From a virus (Duplodnaviria > Caudoviricetes): 61,090 nucleotides of DNA. Shown here piece by piece: positions 7,985 through 58,043 of the stretch. The DNA lies in the IMG/VR virus record IMGVR_UViG_3300025407_001003, positions 1 to 61,090 of that record; one strand, given 5' to 3'. A program made the translations under genes and the position numbers. The notes below the pieces were generated by a model. It did not search any database. It was not told the origin of the DNA and saw only the letters and a list, made by a program, of their open reading frames with translations. Numbering within the stretch: the first letter of the stretch is position 1; every line of letters starts with the position of its first letter.

Positions 7985-8072
7985 TAGGATCTTTACAGCA
8001 AACCTTAATGGAAAATAAACTGATTTATACTCAGTTTTAGAAGGTTCAAATCCTTTACAATAAAAGATCCTG
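7985..8072 (+). ncRNA. CAGCA-motif RNA copy 1 (anticodon-like arm and T-arm cargo)
   Basis: TAGGATCT-TTA-CAGCA...AGATCCTG; interior ACTGA-TTTATAC-TCAGT and AAGG-TTCAAAT-CCTT. Confidence 0.75.
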
Positions 8073-13613: not shown

Positions 13614-13801
13614 CACTAGGTTACACTTTTACCTAAAGAAGTGGGTTATTGTCTGACCATACACGACACGGTGCTTAGGATCTATACCGCAAAGGCTTCA
13701 AATAAGGAGCGACTTGAGAATATCCTAGGGCGGGAACTGTACCGTCCAAATGGAAAAGCAGATGGACAGGTGTAACAACTCAGTTTAGGGCTTTGGTAGT
13801 G
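13614..13801 (+). ncRNA. candidate ~190-nt structured ncRNA after tRNA-Thr
   Basis: GC-rich non-coding; CACTA/TAGTG, GTTACAC/GTGTAAC, ACGGTGC/GTACCGT, TAGGAT/ATCCTA, GTCCA/TGGAC. Confidence 0.55.
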
Positions 13802-14623: not shown

Positions 14624-15328
14624 ATGAATTACAAAAAACATTATTTGTTATTAATAGAACGGGCAAAGTTAAGAAATATCGAGGACTATACCGAAAGACA
14701 TCATATTATTCCGCGATGTTTAGGTGGTTCTAATGCAGTAGATAATTTAGTTAATTTAACGCCAGAAGAGCATTATTTAGCACACCAATTATTAGTAAAA
14801 ATTCATCCTAATAATAAAAAATTACTACATGCAGCAATGATGATGATTCCGTCATCATCATACCAAAATAGAAATAATAAGTTATATGGATGGTTAAGAA
14901 AACGGTATTCTAAACAAAGAAAACGCGATACAATAGGAGATAAAAATCCAAATTTTGGAAAAAAATGGTATCATGAGCCAACTACACTTGAAAAAATAAG
15001 AGTAGTTCCAGGAACACAGCCAACAAATTTTGTCGAAGGCAGAACTCCAAAATTTAAAAATCGATATTGTAGAGTGTGTAAGAATTTTGTTGATAAAGTT
15101 CCATTATGGAATGGTAAATTAAAATTTTGCGATGGTTGTAAACCGCTTCATAAAAAAGAAAGATTGTTAAAATATGATTATTCAATCATTTCTTTGATTT
15201 ATAAAGAAGGAGTTAGTACTAAACAAGGGTATTATAGTATTGCTAAAAAATATGGTATAAACAAATGGTCGATTTATGATTACATTGAAAGATACAAAGA
15301 TCGATTAGAAAAAGAACACGGGGTTTAG
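14624..15328 (+). CDS. HNH homing endonuclease (Mob-like)
   Basis: YTERHHIIPRCLGGSN...NLVNLTPEEHYLAHQLL; GDKNPNFGKKW; TAG stop within tRNA-Pro. Confidence 0.92.
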   Translation: MNYKKHYLLLIERAKLRNIEDYTERHHIIPRCLGGSNAVDNLVNLTPEEHYLAHQLLVKIHPNNKKLLHAAMMMIPSSSYQNRNNKLYGWLRKRYSKQRKRDTIGDKNPNFGKKWYHEPTTLEKIRVVPGTQPTNFVEGRTPKFKNRYCRVCKNFVDKVPLWNGKLKFCDGCKPLHKKERLLKYDYSIISLIYKEGVSTKQGYYSIAKKYGINKWSIYDYIERYKDRLEKEHGV

Positions 15329-15398: not shown

Positions 15399-15455
15399 TA
15401 GGATCCATTCAGCAATTAAACATTTTACTTTTCATGTGAAACAAAGCGGATCCTG
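15399..15455 (+). ncRNA. CAGCA-motif RNA copy 2 (minimal hairpin cargo)
   Basis: TAGGATCC-ATT-CAGCA...GGATCCTG; interior TTTTAC-TTTTCAT-GTGAAA. Confidence 0.75.
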
Positions 15456-15470
15456 TTAGTTTTAAGATTT

Positions 15471-15590
15471 TAGGATGCTTTCAGCATAAAATTATTACAA
15501 GCCAAAAACGGCGGGTGTAGGTGCAATTCCTACTTCCTACGGGGATGATGTAACAGTAGCATGGCCGTCCGTAAATAATAATGCATCCTG
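15471..15590 (+). ncRNA. CAGCA-motif RNA copy 3 with circularly permuted tRNA-like domain
   Basis: TAGGATGC-TTT-CAGCA...GCATCCTG; order ACGGC, T-arm GTAGG-TGCAATT-CCTAC, TTCC-TACG-GGGA, D-arm ATGT/GCAT, GCCGT. Confidence 0.85.
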
Positions 15591-15602: not shown

Positions 15603-15631
15603 TTGACAACTACCTTAAAAAGTTGTACTAT
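15603..15631 (+). promoter_or_regulatory. sigma70-like promoter for CAGCA RNA copy 4
   Basis: TTGACA-N17-TACTAT. Confidence 0.7.
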
Positions 15632-15644
15632 AATTTTAAGAATT

Positions 15645-15779
15645 TAGGATGCTTACAGCAAATATTTTCTAAAAGAATCAGGCATCGAAAGATTTGTAGG
15701 TTCAAGTCCTACACCCGATCACGCTGATTGGGTTGGCGAAATTGGTAAACGCACTTGACAAAAAAGAAAATGCATCCTG
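15645..15779 (+). ncRNA. CAGCA-motif RNA copy 4 with circularly permuted class II (Leu-like) tRNA domain
   Basis: TAGGATGC-TTA-CAGCA...GCATCCTG; TCAGG, variable arm ATC-GAAA-GAT, T-arm GTAGG-TTCAAGT-CCTAC, ACCCGATC-ACGCT-GATTGGGT, D-arm GCG-AAATTGGTAAA-CGC, CTTGA. Confidence 0.88.
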
Positions 15780-15786
15780 TTAAAAG

Positions 15787-15901
15787 TCTTTATACACATG
15801 CACACAAATGCGTAGGCCACGCAGATGTACTGGAGGACAGCTTTGTCGTTGGCGACATAGTTGGCAGGTTCGATTCCTGTGAGTGTGCAGATGTATAAAG
15901 A
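15787..15901 (+). ncRNA. tRNA-like element on an extended stem
   Basis: TCTTTATACA/TGTATAAAGA and TGCACAC/GTGTGCA; TGCGT/ACGCA, TGTCG/CGACA and T-arm GCAGG-TTCGATT-CCTGT; no CCA end. Confidence 0.6.
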
Positions 15902-16427: not shown

Positions 16428-18221
16428 ATGATTAATAAAAATATCTCAACTGCAATTCTTTTTGCAGTTCTCATTGTATCGTTGTATGTTATGTTTAACA
16501 CAATAAACGGAAACAAAGAACGCGGTCCAATGCCATTTCCTTATAGTCAATTTGTTAGGGAAGTTCACGGGCATACAATCAAACGAGTTATGATCGATGA
16601 TAGGGTGATTAGAGGTGAATCAAGAGACGGAGAACAGTTTATTGTTTATACACCAAATGATCCTGCATTGATTAATGACTTACTTAATAACGATGTAGAA
16701 GTTCGAGCTCAAGAACCTCCACATAGAAGTTTATTCTTTGAAATTTTCATCAGTTGGTTCCCGATGCTTGTTTTGATCGGCGTGTGGATTTGGTTCATGC
16801 GTAAACAGAATAGAATGATGGGTAGCGGTACTAATGGAATGGGCAAGAGCAAACATAAATTGCTCAACGAAACAAGCCAAAAAATTACGTTTGCCGATGT
16901 AGCAGGATGCGATGAAGCAAAAGGAGATGTTGTAGAAATTGTAGACTTCTTAAAGGATCCAAAGAAGTTTAGTAAATTAGGTGGTAAAATACCTCGTGGT
17001 GTCTTACTAGTAGGCCCCCCAGGAACAGGTAAAACATTACTAGCAAGAGCAGTAGCAGGAGAGGCGGGTGTTTCATTCTTTAGTATCTCCGGTTCCGACT
17101 TTGTTGAAATGTTTGTCGGTGTAGGTGCAAGTCGTGTACGTGATATGTTTGTTGAAGCAAAGAAACAATCACCTTGTATTATATTTATTGACGAAATTGA
17201 TGCAATCGGTAAAGCACGTAATGGTAGCATTATGGGCAACGACGAACGTGATCAAACCCTTAACGCATTACTTGTTGAAATGGACGGATTTGAAGCATCA
17301 ACTGGCATCATTATTATTGCCGCAACTAATCGTCCCGAAATTCTTGATAAAGCATTACTTCGTCCAGGACGATTTGATAGACAAGTTACAGTAGGACTTC
17401 CAGACATTAACGGACGCGAACAAATACTTAAAGTACACACTAAAGATGTTCCATTAGCAAAAGATGTTAAGTTACATGATTTAGCACGTGGTACACCTGG
17501 ATTTAGTGGTGCAGAACTTGCAAACCTAGTCAATGAAGCAAGTATTTTAGCAAGTAAATGCGATCGTGAAGCAATTCATATGAAGCATTTTGAAAAGGCC
17601 AAGGACAAGATCCTAATGGGTGCGGAACGTAAAACTTTTGCAATGAGTGAAGATGAAAAGCGTTTAACTGCATATCATGAAGCAGGACACGCAGTAGTTG
17701 GTTACTTAACACCAGAGCATGATCCGATTTACAAAGTCAGCATCATTCCGCGGGGACGCGCATTAGGTATCACAATGTTCCTTCCAGAACGTGACTCAGT
17801 TAGTATGAGTAAGCGTAAATTAGAAGGACAGATCGCAAGTCTTTATGGAGGAAGAATTGCTGAAGAAATTATTGCAGGCGAAGATGGAATTACTACAGGT
17901 GCTAGCAATGATATTGAACGTGCAACTCTACTTGCTACTAAAATGGTAACAGAGTGGGGCATGAGCAAAAACTTACAACCTATTAAATACGTCGAGGAAG
18001 ATGGCGGATATGTAGGTGCAGGACATAGCCACTTAAAACAAGGACTAGATGAAATCAATAATCAAATTGAAAAGGAAATTGAAGAGGTTATTGAACGTAA
18101 TTACGGTCGTGCTAAGACAATCCTTAAAACTAATTGGGATAAAGTCGAAGCAATGGTTACTGCCCTAATGAAACACGAAACAATCGATGTTAAACAGATT
18201 GAGAAAATTATGAAAGGTTGA
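16428..18221 (+). CDS. ftsH: ATP-dependent zinc metalloprotease FtsH
   Basis: Two TM segments, [31 protein letters not shown]. Confidence 0.97.
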
Positions 18222-18508: not shown

Positions 18509-18564
18509 TAGGCTCAGTTCAGCAATTAACTTTTCACCATTATAGAAAAACCAAGTTGAGCCTG
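18509..18564 (+). ncRNA. CAGCA-motif RNA copy 5
   Basis: TAGGCTCA-GTT-CAGCA...TGAGCCTG. Confidence 0.75.
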
Positions 18565-18573
18565 TTAATATCA

Positions 18574-18805
18574 TAGGATGAATACAGCAAAATATAACTT
18601 TATTACTGCAACCAACTAAGGCAGTAGACGGTGGCCCGGAAGGCAAGTAGCAATACTTTCTAGAAATAGACGCTAACGGAACTGATGACTTATGGAAAGA
18701 CATATATGCGCTATTGCAGACACAAGAATAGCTAGGCTTGGGGAACTGAACCAATATACAGGGGATGGGGCCAAGCAGAAAATAAAAACTGTTCCGCTCA
18801 TCCTG
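18574..18805 (+). ncRNA. CAGCA-motif RNA copy 6 with ~200-nt multi-helix cargo
   Basis: TAGGATGA-ATA-CAGCA...TCATCCTG; TACTGC/GCAGTA, AAGTA-GCAA-TACTT, CGGAAC/GTTCCG, GCTATT/AATAGC. Confidence 0.75.
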
Positions 18806-20553: not shown

Positions 20554-20840
20554 TGGCTAGAGGTCGTGTACAATCAGAGTTCACCGTTGAATATAATAAA
20601 AGTCATAGAATCATATTTCTTAAAGATACTGGACAGGGAAAAAAGACTATTACTAATGACGCTGACGAGGTGTATGCGTACTACAAACAGATAGATCCGT
20701 TAATTCGTATTGTATACCAAGGCACAGATGATGTTTGGATGGAAATTGTCCAACGCGAAACTTGGATGGGCAAGGGAATCGGATTTGAACCTTGGCACGG
20801 ACTTACTTGGGATGCATTAAAGCGAGATTACTCGGAATAA
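20553..20840 (+). CDS. hypothetical protein
   Basis: GGAG SD, TAATG coupling. Confidence 0.65.
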   Translation: MARGRVQSEFTVEYNKSHRIIFLKDTGQGKKTITNDADEVYAYYKQIDPLIRIVYQGTDDVWMEIVQRETWMGKGIGFEPWHGLTWDALKRDYSE

Positions 20841-21079
20841 TGACCCGGAATGAACTGATTGACTTAGTTGCTGAATATGCTATACTAATATTAGAAGCAG
20901 ACGATGCTAATCCCGATGTTGGCATGGGAATAGGTCCGCTGAGTGCCGTTTTATCAGCTGAAAAACAAGTATATCGAGAAGCAGTAAGATGGAATAGTCT
21001 TGCCGCATTAGCATTAGATTTTGAAGACATTAGATCAGAAGTTGTTAACAATGTAAATTTACAGAGGCGTATGTGGTAA
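20840..21079 (+). CDS. hypothetical protein
   Basis: TAATG coupling. Confidence 0.6.
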   Translation: MTRNELIDLVAEYAILILEADDANPDVGMGIGPLSAVLSAEKQVYREAVRWNSLAALALDFEDIRSEVVNNVNLQRRMW

Positions 21080-23418: not shown

Positions 23419-23459
23419 TAGGTTACTTACAGCAACTAATTTTTTTTAACAATAACCTG
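23419..23459 (+). promoter_or_regulatory. CAGCA-motif copy 7 in the 5' UTR of the vWA gene
   Basis: TAGGTTAC-TTA-CAGCA...TAACCTG; last G is the first G of the GGAG SD. Confidence 0.8.
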
Positions 23460-23470
23460 GAGATAATATT

Positions 23471-24874
23471 ATGACTACTTTTACTAATGCAGTTAAGGAT
23501 CAAGAGGCTCGTACTAAGAATGGTATGAAGGCACGTAAGTCTACTACCGATAAGGTTGTCGACTTGTTTTTCAAGATCGGTGCAAGCCGTGGTAAGGACA
23601 TTGTACCTGACTTTGTCGGCGCATATGTTCAAGATAAGGATTTGGCAGCTCGTGTAGCACTTTGGGCGCGTGACGCTCGTGGCGGTGCTGGTGAGCGTAA
23701 GTTGTTCCGTGACATCCTTGTTTACCTAGAGACTAGTGATCCAGACATGGCTAAGGCTATGTTACACAAGGTTCCAGAGCTTGGACGTTGGGATGACATT
23801 TTTGTGTTTAAGACTGTAGAGTTCAAGCATGCCGCATATGACATGTTAAAGACTGCACTTTTAAACGGAGATGGATTGGCAGCTAAGTGGACTCCTCGTA
23901 AGGGCGAGTTGGCAGCTGAGATCCGCAACTATTTTGGTTGGTCTCCAAAGTTTTACCGTAAGACTTTGGTTACTTTGACTAAGGTTGTTGAGACTCAAAT
24001 GTGTGCTAACGATTGGGATGAGATTAACTTTAACCATGTTCCTTCTTTGGCATCTGCGCGATACAAGAAGGCATTTAACCGTCATACTACTAAGTTTGCG
24101 GACTATGTAGCGGCGTTGGTTAAGGGAGACCCAACTGCCAAGGTTAACGCTGGTGCAGTTTACCCATATGATGTACTAAAGGGTGTAGCATACGCTCGCT
24201 TTGATAAGACTGAGAAGGATCATGTTATCGCACAATGGGAGGCTTTGCCAAACTTTGTAGGTGACGCAAACATTCTTCCAATGGTCGATGTTAGTGGTTC
24301 TATGAACACTCCAGCAGGCGGCAAGGGATCTACTACTTGTATGGATGTTGCAGTTAGCTTGGGCTTGTACCTTGCCGAGAAGAACCAAGGAAAGTTCAAG
24401 GATACCTTCCTTACTTTCTCAAGTGATCCAGAACTACTTCACCTTAAGGGTAATGTAGTTGAGAAGATGACTCAAATGGTTCGTAGCGCATGGGGCATGA
24501 GCACCAATCTACATGCAGCATTTGACGAGATCCTTAAGGTCGCAGTTAAGGGTAACGTTCCACAAGCTGAGATGCCAGAGATGGTGCTTATCCTTAGCGA
24601 CATGCAATTTAACCATTGTACTCGTTTCGACGATAGCGCAATGGAGATGATTGCACGTAAGTTTGAGCAAGCAGGATACGCTGTACCACAGGTTGTATTC
24701 TGGAACTTGAACGCTAGCGATAACGTTCCTGTTAAGGCTGATGCATCTGGTGCAGCACTTGTATCTGGTTTTAGCCCAAGCATTGTTAAGGCAGTTCTTG
24801 GTGCAGATATGAGTGAGTTTACTCCACATGGTATCATGATGAAGACCATCATGAACGATCGTTACACACTCTAA
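23471..24874 (+). CDS. DUF2828-like protein: helical N-terminus plus vWA domain (Ro60/TROVE-like architecture)
   Basis: RDARGGAGER, GRWDD, AAKWTPR; MIDAS DVSGSM, STNL, ILSDMQF, VFWNL, LVSGFSP; strongly biased codon usage. Confidence 0.85.
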   Translation: MTTFTNAVKDQEARTKNGMKARKSTTDKVVDLFFKIGASRGKDIVPDFVGAYVQDKDLAARVALWARDARGGAGERKLFRDILVYLETSDPDMAKAMLHKVPELGRWDDIFVFKTVEFKHAAYDMLKTALLNGDGLAAKWTPRKGELAAEIRNYFGWSPKFYRKTLVTLTKVVETQMCANDWDEINFNHVPSLASARYKKAFNRHTTKFADYVAALVKGDPTAKVNAGAVYPYDVLKGVAYARFDKTEKDHVIAQWEALPNFVGDANILPMVDVSGSMNTPAGGKGSTTCMDVAVSLGLYLAEKNQGKFKDTFLTFSSDPELLHLKGNVVEKMTQMVRSAWGMSTNLHAAFDEILKVAVKGNVPQAEMPEMVLILSDMQFNHCTRFDDSAMEMIARKFEQAGYAVPQVVFWNLNASDNVPVKADASGAALVSGFSPSIVKAVLGADMSEFTPHGIMMKTIMNDRYTL

Positions 24875-36234: not shown

Positions 36235-36987
36235 ATGAAAGAATACAACTTATATAGTATCGACGGTGTTGAAATACCGTTTTCACCTAATTGGAACGAT
36301 ATAGCTATTAGTTTAAGTGGCGGTGCTGATAGCGCATTATTGGCGTATCTACTTTGTGAATTAGTTGAACAATATAATAAAGAAATTAATATACATCTCA
36401 TTTCGCATATTCGAATGTGGAAAACACGACCGTGGCAACAATACGATGCAAATAGAATCTATCAATATCTAACTCAATTGTTTCCAAATTTAAAATTTAT
36501 TCGTTACACAAATTTTATTGCGCCAGATCTCGAATATGGTTTCATCGGCCATTCTATTAATGACGAATACGGAAAGCAAGTAAGCGGTGATAATATTCAG
36601 ATCAGGGCATATTCGGAATATGTATGTTACCATAATAAAGTTAATGCGTATTATAATGCTGTAACACGAAATCCTAAAAATGTTGATTTTTCGCTCGATG
36701 GCATGGATCGAAGAGATATAGAACCTACTGACGATAACACACATTTACAATTAATGGTTCATATGAATGTATTAGTAAGTCATCCATTTCGATTTACCGA
36801 AAAGTCGTGGGTAATAAAACAATATAAAAGTAAAAATTTAATGGATCTATTTAATCTCACTCGTAGCTGTGAAGGTGATTTTAAAAATCTAGATTATGTT
36901 ACATATATACCGTACCAAGACGTGCCAGTATGCAACAACTGCTTTTGGTGTAAAGAGAGGAACTGGGCAATTGAACAAAACAAGTAA
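36235..36987 (+). CDS. QueC-like PP-loop ATPase
   Basis: SLSGGADS PP-loop; TRSC...CNNCFWCKER Zn motif. Confidence 0.75.
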   Translation: MKEYNLYSIDGVEIPFSPNWNDIAISLSGGADSALLAYLLCELVEQYNKEINIHLISHIRMWKTRPWQQYDANRIYQYLTQLFPNLKFIRYTNFIAPDLEYGFIGHSINDEYGKQVSGDNIQIRAYSEYVCYHNKVNAYYNAVTRNPKNVDFSLDGMDRRDIEPTDDNTHLQLMVHMNVLVSHPFRFTEKSWVIKQYKSKNLMDLFNLTRSCEGDFKNLDYVTYIPYQDVPVCNNCFWCKERNWAIEQNK

Positions 36988-38236
36988 TACATTCTGTATG
37001 CATCCGTTTACAGGATTAGCAACGAGAGAAGACGGAGCTATAAAAGTTTGTTGCCGTAGTCATCCTATCGGGTATATTCAAGAGAATACACTTGAAGAGA
37101 TTTGGAATAACGACACAATGTGCCGAATTAGAAAACAAATACTCAATAATGAACGTCCTCCCGAATGCCAGCCCTGTTTTAGTCTCGAAGATCAAGGAGT
37201 CGAAAGTTTAAGACAGAGGCATATTGCAGGAATCATCCCAGAAGCAAGGATTACGTTATACCCTACCGCATTAGATAGTTTAAAAGATGACTATACGATG
37301 CCGTTTGAAATTCCTACGATGGAAATTAAAATAAACAATTTATGCAATCTCAAATGTCGCATGTGCAATCCTACCGATAGCACTAGTTGGACAGATTGGA
37401 AGGAAATTGAAGAATTTTATATTAAAGAGGATAATTTTTTAGTTGACAATATTAATATGCTCAATTTATTAAAACATCCCTATTTAGACAAGTTTCAAAA
37501 TAATCCTAATTGGTGGGAAAGTTTTGAAAAATTACTACCTCATTTTCGTAGGGTAGAATTTGCCGGAGGCGAACCGTTAATGGATCCACAGCATTATCGA
37601 ATACTTGATATGCTTATACCGTACGGAAATAACATCCAAATTAAATATGCAACTAATCTAACCATGCTCGGCAAAGGCATTCACACGATTCATGAATATT
37701 GGCCAAAATTTTCAAGTGTAGCAGTTAACGTAAGTATAGACGGATACAAAGACAGTTACGAGTATATTCGTAGAAATGCTAATTGGAATCAGTTAATTGA
37801 AAATATCAAATCAATACAGACTATTCCAAATATTGATCGAATCGTCGGAGCAGTTGCGGTACAAGTTAGTAATATATTAGTATTAGATAAAATGATCGAA
37901 TACTTCTTAGATGAATTAGGGGTTGTTTTTTACACAAATATGGTAAGGTATCCAAGTGTACTCTCTATACAAGTATTACCGTTTGAATTGAAATCATTAG
38001 TTACACTACGTTTGAAATTAACAAAATGTAAAGTTTCTAAGTTTAAGTATGTACAAGAAAATCCAATTCTTGAAGAAATAACACTTAAACAAATAGATGG
38101 AGTAATTAATTTCTTATGGGCTAGTGATGACAGTGACCTTTGGAAAGATTGCATTGAATATAATACAAGATTGGATAAAAGTCGTAATTCTTTAAAATTT
38201 GAAGAAGTAACGCCAGAATTTAAAATGTTTTTATGA
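36971..38236 (+). CDS. radical SAM protein with N-terminal Cys-rich (twitch/SPASM-like) domain
   Basis: CMHPF..CC..CQPC; CNLKCRMC; FAGGEP; probable TTG start. Confidence 0.88.
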   Translation: MNKTSNTFCMHPFTGLATREDGAIKVCCRSHPIGYIQENTLEEIWNNDTMCRIRKQILNNERPPECQPCFSLEDQGVESLRQRHIAGIIPEARITLYPTALDSLKDDYTMPFEIPTMEIKINNLCNLKCRMCNPTDSTSWTDWKEIEEFYIKEDNFLVDNINMLNLLKHPYLDKFQNNPNWWESFEKLLPHFRRVEFAGGEPLMDPQHYRILDMLIPYGNNIQIKYATNLTMLGKGIHTIHEYWPKFSSVAVNVSIDGYKDSYEYIRRNANWNQLIENIKSIQTIPNIDRIVGAVAVQVSNILVLDKMIEYFLDELGVVFYTNMVRYPSVLSIQVLPFELKSLVTLRLKLTKCKVSKFKYVQENPILEEITLKQIDGVINFLWASDDSDLWKDCIEYNTRLDKSRNSLKFEEVTPEFKMFL

Positions 38237-41142: not shown

Positions 41143-42131
41143 TTATATTTTGTTACATGTGTCTCAGGTTGACATCCGCATAATGTTCGTGGACAAATGA
41201 TTGATTTAAATTCAACATCATCTAAGTTAAAATCATTATCTGAAAAAACGTTAAATATTTTACCGTTAAATATTCCTTCCTGACATGATCCTGTTACGGT
41301 ACCGTCAAAGTTTATCAATAACGTTTCTAATCCGACGTTGCATGTCCATCCTTTAAAATAATTCCATTTATTAACAATGATGGTTTCTGGACGAGCAACC
41401 ATTATTGACTCATCGTCGAATAATACCACACTCTCATATATACGCAAGTTGTTAAAGTTTTTTAATAGCCAATCCGAGTCTGGTAATCGTTTCATACTTT
41501 GTGAACAATAGTCGAGTTGATCTTGAGTATATGAATCAACGTCCATTCCGGGAGCCATTATTACTTCTTTTGTTTGTATATACCACGGATATTTGCTAGT
41601 TTTCATTTTTTCAACAGCGGCAACACACTCGTCCCATTTTTCTGCGTTCATTAACACAAGTGACGTGACTTTTAATCCTTCTTCAAATAGCGTATCTGCA
41701 ACTGCAATATGATGATCGATATCTCCATATTCTTGATGAAAACTCAAGACCGCATCATCAAAATATTTAGAATTTTCTTTCCACCACCGAATCGTTCTAG
41801 AACCGTTTGAAATAATAGTAATATAAACATTATGTGTTTTTTTTATTTCTTCGCAAAAATAACTAATATGCGGCCATAAAGATGGATCACCGCCTCCTGT
41901 GATTTGCAAATGAAATCGGGTTTTATTTAACTTGCGTTCATATATATCAAATAATTTTCTAAAATTGTTAATTACAGTATCGACATTTTTTGGGTATCTA
42001 AATTTTCCGTCTTTTTGTCCTGGAAAACAATATGAACAATCAAAGTTGCAAATATCAGTAGGCAAAAATCTTACATGTAACGTAGATTGCTCTTGAGTTG
42101 AAATTATCTTAATAGGGATACGTTTATTCAT
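41139..42131 (-). CDS. radical SAM protein with C-terminal Cys cluster
   Basis: CNFDCSYC; GGGDP; CPRTLCGC. Confidence 0.9.
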   Translation of the reverse strand: MNKRIPIKIISTQEQSTLHVRFLPTDICNFDCSYCFPGQKDGKFRYPKNVDTVINNFRKLFDIYERKLNKTRFHLQITGGGDPSLWPHISYFCEEIKKTHNVYITIISNGSRTIRWWKENSKYFDDAVLSFHQEYGDIDHHIAVADTLFEEGLKVTSLVLMNAEKWDECVAAVEKMKTSKYPWYIQTKEVIMAPGMDVDSYTQDQLDYCSQSMKRLPDSDWLLKNFNNLRIYESVVLFDDESIMVARPETIIVNKWNYFKGWTCNVGLETLLINFDGTVTGSCQEGIFNGKIFNVFSDNDFNLDDVEFKSIICPRTLCGCQPETHVTKYK

Positions 42132-43513
42132 ACTAATCCTTTTAATTCCGGAAACGTGCTAGAAAAATCAGTTCCTCTAATTCTATCTAAATTTTTTATA
42201 TATTCAGAAAAATCTGGCAACAAATGACTCAAATCTTCACATTCGATAAAGTCGATTCCGCTGTCCCACCTTTTCCATCCGTATGAACTCACATTCCAAA
42301 AAACGTCATCGGTTGTGTAGTTTTTCTGTAACCATAGTTTAAATTCTTCAAACCGTTTTCTTAATTCTTGTTTGTATTCCAATGGCAGTATCTTTGCACT
42401 AAGGAAAGTTGGAATATATAAAAAATGCATGTTAATTAGCCCTCCTCCCATTACGAATTCTCCGGGCATAACTGATAAATTTATTTTTTTATAATTTTGT
42501 GAAATTTTCCATTTTACAAAATCTGGTAGATGCATTACATTTAATACTTGAATAGCCGTTGCAATGCTTACTACTACATTATCCGGTGTATTATCTAACA
42601 TGTGTAATGCCCTCTCAACTTCGGCCCATTTTGTAGGAAATCTTATATAATGATTTCGATCTCCATATGCATCTATACTAATTGCAAATTTAACCTGTTT
42701 AAAATAAGACCAAAGATCTATAATTTCATCAGTTAAAAATACTCCATTACTTGAGTATCTAACAACTATGTCTTTTGCATATCCTCGGCGAATAATTTCC
42801 TCCAAAAACAATTTATGTTCCTTGATCATTAATGGTTCGCCACCGGCAAAATATACTTGCTTTAAGTTTGGTATTTGATCATAAATATCGGACCAAAACG
42901 ACGGTTGCTCATACCATCGATTGTTAAACGATATGTCATCAAACTCAATTTGGCTCCTTACTACACTACTAGATGTTACAGACATTAGCTTAGAATGATC
43001 TTGTAACCATCTACTACTATCATGCGGGCTACACATTACACATTTTAAATTACACGTATTTCCTAATCTCAAGTCTAAATACCGAAATTTATTCGAGATC
43101 GAACCATCTTGATTAGTCGAAGTTACTAATTCATTAATATCTATACCTTCTTCGATCCAGTATTTTGTCTCCCATACTCTCTTACTAACCACTCCGGATG
43201 ATTCTTCTTTAAAACATTTTGTACAACTTTTTGGAATTTGATTACTTAACATTTGTAATCTTACTGATTTCATATAATCATTGTTCCATGCTTCTAAGGG
43301 AGATTCTCGTGAAAAATTAGCGGGACCGCCGTGAAAGTGTTTTACTAGCCCGATTTCGATCTCATTTGTTTCAGCGCCGCTTGCATTAGATGTGCAACAT
43401 AATCGCATATCACCGTTCGGCCTAGTTGCCAAATGAATCCATGGTAATATACAAAACGTCGATGACGAGTTCGCTGTAATTTCATCGCATAGTGATTTTA
43501 ACTCGCTAGTCAT
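42128..43513 (-). CDS. radical SAM protein with N-terminal Cys-rich domain
   Basis: CILPW..LCC..CTKC; CNLKCVMC; FAGGEP. Confidence 0.9.
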   Translation of the reverse strand: MTSELKSLCDEITANSSSTFCILPWIHLATRPNGDMRLCCTSNASGAETNEIEIGLVKHFHGGPANFSRESPLEAWNNDYMKSVRLQMLSNQIPKSCTKCFKEESSGVVSKRVWETKYWIEEGIDINELVTSTNQDGSISNKFRYLDLRLGNTCNLKCVMCSPHDSSRWLQDHSKLMSVTSSSVVRSQIEFDDISFNNRWYEQPSFWSDIYDQIPNLKQVYFAGGEPLMIKEHKLFLEEIIRRGYAKDIVVRYSSNGVFLTDEIIDLWSYFKQVKFAISIDAYGDRNHYIRFPTKWAEVERALHMLDNTPDNVVVSIATAIQVLNVMHLPDFVKWKISQNYKKINLSVMPGEFVMGGGLINMHFLYIPTFLSAKILPLEYKQELRKRFEEFKLWLQKNYTTDDVFWNVSSYGWKRWDSGIDFIECEDLSHLLPDFSEYIKNLDRIRGTDFSSTFPELKGLV

Positions 43514-48876: not shown

Positions 48877-48976
48877 GTAGACGTGAGCGGAATTGGTATA
48901 CCTCCTCCCTTCGGGGAGGGAAGTGGGCTAGGCTATAACGCTGCCTTTGGAGGTTCGAATCCTCCCGTCTGCACCA
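48877..48976 (+). ncRNA. tRNA-like RNA whose anticodon loop is a UUCG tetraloop
   Basis: GTAGACG/CGTCTGC-A-CCA, D-loop GGAATTGGTATA, CCTCCC-TTCG-GGGAGG, long variable region, GGAGG-TTCGAAT-CCTCC. Confidence 0.8.
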
Positions 48977-56717: not shown

Positions 56718-58043
56718 ATGTTAAAGAGACGAATAATTAATTTAATTCGAAAATGGCGAGCAGCTCGCAATATTAAGAAATTTTCAAAAAAAACTATGAA
56801 ACCAGAAGATGTAATTTGTGCAATACCGTGGATGCATTTAGCATTTGAACCCAGCGGTAAAATCGTTCCCTGTTGTTTAACTTCACATCATAATTATTTT
56901 TCAGGTGATTTAACTAAAGAATCAATCGAAGAAATATGGAATAGTGAGAATATGAAATCCTTACGTCGAGAGATGTTAGAGGGTCGGGAACCAAAAATCT
57001 GTAGTACATGTTTCGACAGAGAACGTGTTACAGGAGAAAGTGCTAGAACTTTTCACGAGAAAGAATTCAAAGAAGTTGTTAAGAGAATTCCAGAAATTAC
57101 ACAGCCAGACGGCACATGTACTGAAATGAAATTACGATATTGGGATTTTAGATTCAGTAATTTGTGTAACTATAAATGTCGCAGTTGTGGGCCAAGATTT
57201 AGTAGTGCATGGGTGCCGGATGCTAAAAAATTAGGTCACATAAATGATCAGGATAAAGTGTGGAGTATTGAACAGGTTAGCAATATGTCTAACTATGACT
57301 TTTTAAAAGATCAAGTTCAATATGTGCAAAAAATTTATTTTGCAGGTGGAGAACCATTGTTAATGCCCGAACATTGGCAAATTTTAGATATGTTAGTTGA
57401 AAATCAAAAATTCAACATTAGAATATCATATAATACAAATGCGTCAACGTTAACTTATAGTGGAAAAAACGCATTGGATTATTGGAAAAAGTGGGATAAT
57501 AATAAAGTTGAAGTTTGGCCTAGTATCGATGAAATTGGAGAACGTGCTGAACTTATTCGATCCGGAACTGTTTGGACAAAAGTTGAAGAGAATCTCAAAA
57601 AGATCACAGCATTAGATAATGTTTGGATTAGACCAGGCATCACAGTCGGCGCGTGGAATGTACGAAGATTACCTATAATTTTAAATCATTTAATCGATCT
57701 CGGTGTTATCAAAGAAAAATATAATTATGCAAATTTCTTTTTTAATATACTTCAAAACCCATCACATTATCATGTTCATATTCTACCCGAAGATTATCGA
57801 TTAGAGACAATTAAAGAGTTAAATGATTTTGTAACCGACCATAATAACAAATATAATACTAACATCTCTCATTTGTTTACTCATATTTTGCACGAATTGG
57901 AAAAACCTCAGGATAAACAAGCAGTTAAAAATTTTTTACGGATTACTAATAATATTGATACATTGCGAAACGAAGACATCTGGACTACCATTCCGGAACT
58001 AGCATGTGTTAAACTTAGTGTAGACGATAATAACGAACTATAA
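56718..58043 (+). CDS. radical SAM protein with N-terminal Cys-rich domain
   Basis: CAIPW..PCC..CSTC; CNYKCRSC; FAGGEP. Confidence 0.9.
   Translation: MLKRRIINLIRKWRAARNIKKFSKKTMKPEDVICAIPWMHLAFEPSGKIVPCCLTSHHNYFSGDLTKESIEEIWNSENMKSLRREMLEGREPKICSTCFDRERVTGESARTFHEKEFKEVVKRIPEITQPDGTCTEMKLRYWDFRFSNLCNYKCRSCGPRFSSAWVPDAKKLGHINDQDKVWSIEQVSNMSNYDFLKDQVQYVQKIYFAGGEPLLMPEHWQILDMLVENQKFNIRISYNTNASTLTYSGKNALDYWKKWDNNKVEVWPSIDEIGERAELIRSGTVWTKVEENLKKITALDNVWIRPGITVGAWNVRRLPIILNHLIDLGVIKEKYNYANFFFNILQNPSHYHVHILPEDYRLETIKELNDFVTDHNNKYNTNISHLFTHILHELEKPQDKQAVKNFLRITNNIDTLRNEDIWTTIPELACVKLSVDDNNEL

Follow-up and report, generated by a model that had tools for sequence, protein, structure and literature searches.

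A circularly permuted, tRNA-shaped member of the phage CAGCA RNA family as a probable YrlA-like Y RNA for a Ro60-fold DUF2828/DUF7788 protein

The DNA analysed here, referred to as the window, is the 61,090-nucleotide (nt) stretch of IMG/VR record IMGVR_UViG_3300025407_001003, a phage fragment of 61 kb that derives from freshwater according to its run labels and has a CheckV completeness of 17. ARAGORN recognizes 14 tRNA genes in it, of bacterial type and with their CCA encoded. Its plus strand carries seven cassettes (A to G) that share the frame AGG-nnnn / UUACAGCA(A) ... nnnn-CCU-G, and the pattern AGGN7CAGCAA was found six times in the forward direction, never in reverse and never in a backwards control. 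The element under study is cassette C (plus strand, 15472-15590), which spans 119 nt as read from the sequence, and it is considered together with a gene further downstream (23471-24874, plus strand) whose 467-residue product, P0001, belongs to the DUF2828/DUF7788 proteins.

An earlier note on this DNA had described C as a permuted mimic of tRNA, and every element that it named was found in place. The RNA is closed by an end stem of 7 base pairs (bp), denoted P1, formed by a 5' strand AGGAUGC (15472-15478) and a 3' strand GCAUCCU (15583-15589), the latter being followed by G15590. Directly after the 5' strand lies a docking segment, UUUCAGCAUAAA (15479-15490, with UUUCAGCA as the bulge), which contains the CAGCA motif (15482-15486), and an A-U helix stands beside P1 (15491-15496 with 15577-15582). 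Further inside, an anticodon-like stem, ACGGC / GCCGU (15508-15512 / 15564-15568), encloses in succession the variable loop GGGU (15513-15516), the T arm GUAGG-UGCAAUU-CCUAC (15517-15533), a mini acceptor UUCC-UACG-GGGA of 4 bp with a UACG cap (15534-15545) and the D arm AUGU-AACAGUA-GCAU (15548-15562), which is preceded by UG and followed by G and then by the GCCGU strand. The order of T arm, closed 4-bp hairpin and D arm is thus permuted with respect to tRNA, and a strict scan for permuted tRNA retrieved C among 5 of the 95 cassettes of 85-200 nt, compared with 1 of 475 shuffled cassettes, which is more than chance would give.

In the permuted tRNA genes of red algae and in two-piece transfer-messenger RNA (tmRNA), the elements also stand in circularly permuted order, and the products mature into molecules that can be aminoacylated. 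C might accordingly be read as a true permuted tRNA gene, matured by circularisation or trans-ligation, since its T arm, D arm and anticodon-like stem follow the red-algal order and RtcB ligase genes are found about 1.3 kb downstream of the DUF2828 gene in Listeria phage LMTA-148. We give this reading hardly any credence. The acceptor of C has only 4 bp and is closed by a tetraloop, a discriminator, CCA and anticodon loop are all absent, with the anticodon-like stem leading into the docking helix instead, and the same scaffold bears many inserts of 50-260 nt that are not tRNA-like. Neither ARAGORN nor the Rfam tRNA model called a tRNA at 15472-15590. The view of C as a tRNA-shaped mimic rather than a tRNA gene is therefore supported; in contrast, the suggestion that a Trp or Leu anticodon remnant precedes the anticodon-like stem finds the letters CCAAAA but nothing that marks them as such.

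That C is one of a recurring series, as had also been proposed, is evident from the seven cassettes of the window and, beyond it, from a large and so far undescribed family of phage non-coding RNAs, the CAGCA RNAs. These RNAs are built from two modules. The docking module comprises a 6-7-bp end helix, a single-stranded U-A-CAGCA-A/U after its 5' strand (the conserved UUNCAGCA motif) and CUG after its 3' strand, the family consensus at the motif being T (0.67), A (0.70), CAGCA and then A (0.82). The second module is variable and in C is the circularly permuted tRNA body. The genomic setting of the family was derived from 80 viral loci (L007-L086) that encode relatives of P0001 with 67-90% identity, with a strict scan in which xGG and 4 further nt had to be followed, after a gap of 2-4, by CAGCA and later by the complementary 3' strand and G. 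In these loci (1.03 Mb), 269 strict cassettes were found on the strand of the DUF2828 gene versus 6 on the opposite one, with at least one cassette in 75 of the 80 loci, whereas in a control set of 103 viral loci that bear tRNA genes and are unrelated to these (0.92 Mb), the plus strand had 9 and the minus strand 14. Counting those of the window, the distinct cassette sequences number 198, and their lengths have maxima at 50-70, 100-130, about 160 and about 250 nt.

The linkage extends to the messenger RNA of the gene itself. In 69 of the 78 loci with enough upstream sequence, AAAGGA or GGAG is immediately preceded by the end of a cassette, no more than 30 nt from the start codon; in the window this place is taken by the mini cassette G (23420-23459, plus strand), which lies in the gene's 5' leader and abuts the GGAG ribosome-binding site with its 3' strand. 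Cassettes also adjoin the gene in eight of nine distant annotated phages: four in FelixO1 and in Bacillus phage KoopaTroopa, three in Mycobacteriophage Moostard, Listeria phage LMTA-148, Synechococcus phage BUCT-ZZ01 and Sinorhizobium phage phiM7, and two in Campylobacter phage CP81 and Enterococcus phage vB_Edu_21C1. These are intergenic ACAGCAA matches picked by eye from a loose scan that accepted any stem and was noisy (9 plus-strand and 23 minus-strand matches in FelixO1), the unbiased count being that of the covariance search described below.

These results bear on the possibility that tRNA operons use the cassettes as processing or insulator signals (entry sites for RNase E, RNase III or RNase P, or stabilising hairpins), without any specific tie to DUF2828. 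The cassettes sit between tRNA genes and are preceded by an A/U-rich trailer, the one also found behind the CCA of the tRNAs; tRNA-like shapes attract RNase P, and the YrlA RNA of M. smegmatis is described as cleaved by this enzyme in the excerpted text of PMC4201824. However, the unrelated tRNA-bearing control loci remain at background, the cassettes accompany the gene even where few tRNAs are nearby, as in Moostard and the Synechococcus phage, and a copy in the leader of the gene's own mRNA is hard to account for in such terms. We consequently regard this explanation as improbable.

Many cassettes of 100-130 nt share the layout of C, that is, a T arm followed by a closed acceptor hairpin and a D arm. 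Twenty-eight of them, C being left out, were aligned and used for a covariance model, R1; RNAalifold found 23 pairs in this alignment, 18 of them with compensatory change. C, which R1 had not seen, was recognized with a score of 62.0 bits (E 8e-10 for the window as search space). A search with R1 of 1.11 Mb, made up of the window, the 80 loci and FelixO1, produced 48 matches at E <= 1e-5, every one on the gene strand, among which C ranks 47th and the FelixO1 member scores 69.6 bits. In nine further loci of distant phages, which include Bas63, Moostard and Enterococcus, Bacillus, Sinorhizobium and Synechococcus phages, all 22 matches (E <= 0.01) were likewise on the gene strand. Paired cells make up 98.3% of the alignment, versus 68% when shuffled and 36-44% when slid, and both sides have changed in 20 of the 23 pairs, including six of the seven in P1; these figures refer to an alignment fitted to the R1 model. 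The Bas63 member found in this way (L204:20782-20908) lies under small annotated minus-strand open reading frames (ORFs). As a side observation, small ORFs labelled 'hypothetical protein' cover CAGCA RNAs at 20749-21023 of the Bas63 locus (L204) and at 2861-2998 of that of CP81 (L193), and both are probably mis-annotations.

Within tRNA, position 18 of the D loop contacts position 55 of the T loop. Among 37 distinct members of the tRNA-like class, the corresponding residues were U55/G18 in 33 and G55/A18 in 4, without a single mixed combination, the former being set in a T loop with UUC and a D loop with GG and the latter in a T loop with UGC and a D loop with AG. The four G55/A18 members are C, L021:595, L027:1070 and L060:3096, and their D stems are all different. 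Because each of the last three has U55/G18 relatives with the same D stem, the coupled change must have arisen several times. This covariation supports a folded elbow and the formation of an L-shape. The earlier note would have taken a lack of conservation and covariation in related genomes, along with no folded elbow, as refuting its reading; instead, both relatives with covarying helices and a covarying 18/55 contact were found.

The same covariation decides against the notion that the cassettes are mobile DNA, either elements resembling miniature inverted-repeat transposable elements or targets of homing endonucleases, in which the inverted repeats matter at the DNA level. Terminal inverted repeats, the many copies per genome and nearby HNH endonuclease genes (for instance, at 14624-15328) would fit this notion. 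Nevertheless, the stems covary rather than keep their sequence, as the P1 pairs illustrate, G-U pairs are tolerated, the internal tRNA-like helices and the tertiary pair covary as well, and the strand bias is 269 to 6. All of these are signatures at the RNA level, and a DNA element is therefore very improbable.

The position of C within the family deserves separate consideration, because C could be a decaying copy: the family would be real, and C a non-functional relic of a once tRNA-like CAGCA RNA. Several observations point in this direction and weigh against a functional reading of C. Its acceptor has only 4 bp, its T loop (UGCAAUU) is non-canonical and its D loop lacks GG, while its 62 bits place it next to last among the R1 matches. 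When C is folded by itself, the cloverleaf is not recovered: the proposed structure has -25.3 kcal/mol and the minimum-free-energy fold -33.7 kcal/mol, a difference of 8.4 kcal/mol, and although pairing probabilities are about 1.0 for the T arm, the D arm and P1, they are about 0 for the mini acceptor and the anticodon-like stem. No near-identical orthologue of C was found in the viral collection, either with blastn-short against L007-L086 or with a 17-mer scan for its T arm, which led to 103 loci among the viral contigs without any match longer than 21 nt. Contigs from RNA libraries reach only over 15439-15527, may derive from DNA and cannot prove transcription.

On the other hand, the T and D arms of C are intact, and its U55G and G18A changes are the very coupled change seen in three other members, which would not be expected under decay. 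The short acceptor has a stable UNCG cap, and there are relatives with short, capped acceptors as well. Two of them, L049:3164-3281 and L052:2892-3010, retain the outer stem, the D-arm type and the A-U helix beside P1 while differing in their acceptor hairpins, which read CCC-UUCG-GGG in the former and ACUCA-GUAA-UGAGU in the latter. In addition, a DNA contig from a related strain covers C. Among the differences listed, those that fall in the 5' half of C are G15513C and G15514U; they affect only the unpaired variable loop, and this half is otherwise retained. The contig from an RNA library that spans 15439-15527 carries the same variant. G15513 and G15514 are involved in the competing helix of the minimum-free-energy fold. 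For cassette D and for the FelixO1 and L027 members, the minimum-free-energy fold itself has the tRNA-like layout. Taken together, we regard decay of C as unlikely.

The partner suggested by the genomic linkage is P0001. Its sequence matches Pfam DUF7788 (2.4e-50) and DUF2828 (2.9e-20) as well as phrog_850, annotated as 'RNA-binding protein' (1.7e-141), and it gave no sequence match in the PDB at E <= 10. An AlphaFold2 model based on 60 homologues (pLDDT, the predicted local distance difference test, 89.7; pTM, the predicted template modelling score, 0.88) shows a HEAT-repeat ring of the Ro60 fold joined to a vWA domain with an intact DxSxS of the metal-ion-dependent adhesion site (MIDAS), in which D273, S275 and S277 are invariant. 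In Foldseek, Ro60 or TROVE chains take the first 12 places (E 3e-7 to 2e-5), and only vWA domains come after them. With VIA-align, P0001 superimposes on Ro60 with a Z of 21.6 and a root-mean-square deviation of 4.0 A over 411 residues; the ten best entries are all Ro60/TROVE (Z 13.9-21.6, 378-413 residues aligned), and the next tier consists of vWA-only entries with Z <= 10.9. According to this model, P0001 has the Ro60 fold and would be a Ro60 paralogue. DUF2828 proteins are very common in phages: 710 phage records contain one according to tblastn, and among clusters at 50% identity, 6282 representatives match at E <= 0.001. Their annotations to date go no further than 'RNA-binding' or 'Ro-like', and a full-text literature search aimed at the partner, supplementary tables excepted, brought up no paper that names an RNA for them. 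One of them, gp130 of Bas63, is 40% identical to P0001 and is encoded directly before the Bas63 tRNA array; in the excerpted text of a preprint (PMC11482910) it is reported to be Ro60-like and to counter the ppl defence. The authors of that preprint surmise that Y RNAs may stand behind some 'tRNA genes', and none is identified in the same excerpts.

The combination of an RNA of this architecture with a Ro60-fold protein recalls the bacterial YrlA RNAs (RF02553), described in PMC4201824, from which the following features are taken as excerpted. In both, the end helix encloses a variable region, a T arm, an acceptor-like stem-loop and a D arm in permuted order; the D loop makes a tertiary contact with the T loop, which for the CAGCA RNAs is indicated by the 18/55 covariation; a gene for a Ro60-fold protein is on the same strand and, in many CAGCA loci, nearby; and a locus may hold several different RNAs (YrlA and YrlB in the known case). 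The likeness extends to the Y RNA-Ro60 pairs of metazoans and Deinococcus, in which a protein with a Ro60-fold ring and a vWA domain is associated with small RNAs, a pairing that is only predicted here. Y RNAs are described as docking the protein with their terminal helix and tethering a second factor with their other module (PMC4201824, excerpts). From these the CAGCA system differs in sequence motifs and protein family and in having no known effector. From permuted tRNA genes and tmRNA, whose order of elements it shares, C differs by its closed 4-bp acceptor and the lack of an anticodon loop.

There are differences from YrlA as well. YrlA carries GNCGAAN0-1G near its 5' end, whereas C has UUUCAGCAUA and the family U-A-CAGCA-A/U; the proposed protein partner is DUF2828/DUF7788 and not Pfam TROVE; and the CAGCA RNAs may reach a dozen or more copies per genome, scattered through tRNA arrays, with one copy in the partner's mRNA leader. 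For YrlA genes, Chen et al. 2014 (PMC4201824, excerpts) give a same-strand Ro60 orthologue no more than 4 kb away, while C lies on the same strand and 7.9 kb upstream of the gene for a protein that has the Ro60 fold but belongs to DUF2828/DUF7788. The mycobacteriophage Moostard member gave a sub-threshold YrlA match (37.9 bits versus a gathering score of 69). By analogy, C would work like a YrlA-type Y RNA without being a member of the YrlA family, as the motif and the protein family differ and Rfam's YrlA model is not reached.

All these observations can be integrated by assuming that C is a YrlA-like Y RNA for the phage Ro60-fold DUF2828/DUF7788 protein, consisting of a docking module and a permuted tRNA-shaped module, and we consider this explanation probable, although not by a wide measure. 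Apart from the weaknesses of C itself already discussed, it has to face the dissimilar 5' motif and the 7.9-kb distance just mentioned, the lack of any Rfam YrlA match for C or D at E <= 10, and the lack of a Pfam TROVE match in P0001, for which only DUF7788 and DUF2828 are listed. In Aeromonas phage Aeh1, too, the loose scan gave no cassette up to a distance of 3 kb from the gene. Finally, gp130 alone, without phage RNAs, is reported to have restored plaquing of T7 on a ppl strain (PMC11482910, excerpts), and at least that phenotype is therefore independent of phage-encoded RNA.

In a working model of the YrlA-like reading, the docking module would bind the Ro60-fold protein encoded at 23471-24874, and the L-shaped elbow would offer a tRNA look-alike to some tRNA-recognising factor, so that in RNA surveillance or counter-defence the RNA may serve as an adaptor, a gate or a decoy. 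Translational feedback could come from the leader copy, with the bound protein occluding the ribosome site. Because gp130 of Bas63 is a reported counter-defence factor, the CAGCA RNAs may belong to a phage device for counter-defence or RNA repair. The family offers a candidate RNA partner for a very common phage protein, and it accounts for unannotated gaps and probably mis-called small ORFs in the tRNA arrays of FelixO1, Bas63, Listeria P100-like phages and cluster L mycobacteriophages; moreover, the recurrence of permuted tRNA bodies with a covarying elbow shows selection for the shape of tRNA without its function. Neither the partner gene nor the YrlA-like architecture had been noticed in the earlier note, which also missed the resemblance considered next.

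The only recurrent non-tRNA match that Rfam gives on short cassettes is the Class I RNA of Dictyostelium (RF01414). As described in excerpts of Kjellin et al. 2021 (PMC7919456), Class I RNAs have 42-65 nt, a 6-bp end stem, CCUUACAGCAA beside its 5' strand, an AAG start and a CUGU end. These features correspond position for position to the phage docking module, with its 6-7-bp helix beginning (A)AG/G and its motif after the 5' strand, and in both cases the remainder is variable and minimal forms have 50-65 nt. C reads AGGAUGC / UUUCAGCAUA ... GCAUCCU-GUU, so that stem, motif and 3' end fit, except that the last base of the motif is U and not A. At 119 nt, C is outside the Class I range and it carries a tRNA-like insert, whereas the minimal cassettes B (15400-15455, plus strand, 56 nt) and E (18510-18564, plus strand, 55 nt) fit in length and come closer to the motif; ACAGCAAUUA recurs in both, as well as in Moostard and the Listeria phage. 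Four of the nine short cassettes tested matched the Class I model with 20-34 bits, namely B (33.7), L019:7782 (29.3), E (20.3) and L019:5441 (20.2), and none of the nine reached the gathering score of 41.5; there were matches for two of three short cassettes in L019, for none of four in L013, and C itself gave none.

DUF2828 proteins are encoded in all major dictyostelid groups, and DDB_G0281913 of D. discoideum is 32% identical to P0001. It is thus conceivable, at somewhat less than even chances, that phage CAGCA RNAs and dictyostelid Class I RNAs form one ancient family, whose shared module (a short terminal helix, UUACAGCAA(UUA) beside the 5' strand and a CUG(U) 3' end) would dock DUF2828 proteins. 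Against this link, the motif is short, DUF2828 also occurs in eukaryotes for which no Class I RNA is reported (genomes that encode it include those of Naegleria, chytrids, oomycetes and plants), and Class I genes have a eukaryotic promoter some 60 nt upstream, the Dictyostelium upstream sequence element (DUSE), these RNAs being reported, in the excerpts of PMC7919456, as unique to Dictyostelia. A published pull-down with DdR-21 recovered GuaB, NdkC, DDB_G0281243 and CIBP, and DDB_G0281913 is not in its list. The pulled-down DDB_G0281243, a protein without known function, had been a candidate for a DUF2828 protein and was excluded, the D. discoideum orthologue being DDB_G0281913. The resemblance is consequently taken as a lead only. 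If it holds, DDB_G0281913 would be the partner of Class I RNAs, and DUF2828 particles would constitute a second, unrecognised Ro/Y-type ribonucleoprotein system, one that spans eukaryotes as well as phages of Actinobacteria, Firmicutes, Proteobacteria and Cyanobacteria; a functional puzzle of 20 years would turn into a direct question of binding.

Of the remaining cassettes of the window, D (15646-15779, plus strand) is also permuted and tRNA-like, with a closed acceptor of 8 bp, a canonical T loop (UUCAAGU) and GG in the D loop; its minimum-free-energy fold has a z of -2.88, and its R1 score of 80.6 bits comes from a member of the training set. The earlier note had held C to be unrelated in sequence to this cassette, its copy 4, and to derive from an independent capture of a tRNA body. 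The former claim was overstated, for C and D share the outer stem (7/7), the T stem (5/5) and the A-U helix beside the P1 3' strand. With scaffold and T stem in common, repeated capture and divergence from one ancestral cassette are indistinguishable, and the claim of more than one capture loses its footing. The A-U helix (P2) was also considered as a general feature of the family and rejected, being found in 10 of 141 cassettes versus 9.15 in shuffles; it is present in the sub-lineages of C and D. Between these two cassettes lies a promoter-like TTGACA-17-TACTAT (15603-15631, plus strand, 10 of 12 matches), but such sites are not enriched across the region (9 found versus 9.4 expected). A similar sequence, TTGACA..TACTAT, was read by eye immediately upstream of cassette E, which is 98% identical in L007.

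Cassette F (18575-18805, plus strand, 231 nt) has a conserved 3' module and gives 53 blastn high-scoring segment pairs in related loci, with a core of 64 nt that is up to 100% identical (blastn, L007-L086); in many loci its counterparts, of 225-257 nt, stand just upstream of the DUF2828 gene and are often preceded by a cassette of about 165 nt. Cassette A (7986-8072, plus strand) represents a second topology, shared with L010:793-878, L019:5343-5430 and L020:3736-3821, in which the CAGCA end helix stands where the acceptor stem would be; inside it, a hairpin resembling an anticodon arm is followed by a T arm, as in the normal order, and the D arm is missing. Its fold has a z of -3.24, R1 gives it 32 bits, and the Rfam tRNA model 24.1 bits at 8005-8064.

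Two further elements of the window are reminiscent of cassettes. The one at 15783-15900, between D and the gene for tRNA-Gln, consists of a long inverted repeat, CUUUAUACACAUGCACAC / GUGUGCAGAUGUAUAAAG, with a T-arm-like GGCAGGUUCGAUUCCUGU and without the CAGCA motif; R1 matches only part of it (17.5 bits), and its relatives show many substitutions and indels. The other, at 13677-13730, has the look of a degenerate cassette, with AGGAUCUAUACCGCA, a possible imperfect partner AUAUCCU about 40 nt further on, and CCGCA instead of CAGCA. Outside the window, Listeria phage LMTA-148 carries about 1 kb upstream of its DUF2828 gene (L192 2469-3020) a match to ROOL RNA of 90 bits, the gathering score being 99.1.

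As for other genes of the window, ARAGORN calls a tRNA-Pro(GGG) of 100 nt at 48877-48976, which is not listed by Rfam at its gathering score; it could be an aberrant tRNA or one with an intron, or else the call may be wrong. Three radical S-adenosylmethionine genes, each with a SPASM domain, are located at 36896-38236, 42128-43513 (minus strand) and 56718-58043. Lastly, the region of tRNA genes and cassettes includes a full-length gene for an FtsH-type AAA protease (16428-18221; Peptidase_M41 6.6e-65, AAA 3.2e-47), which is unusual for a phage.

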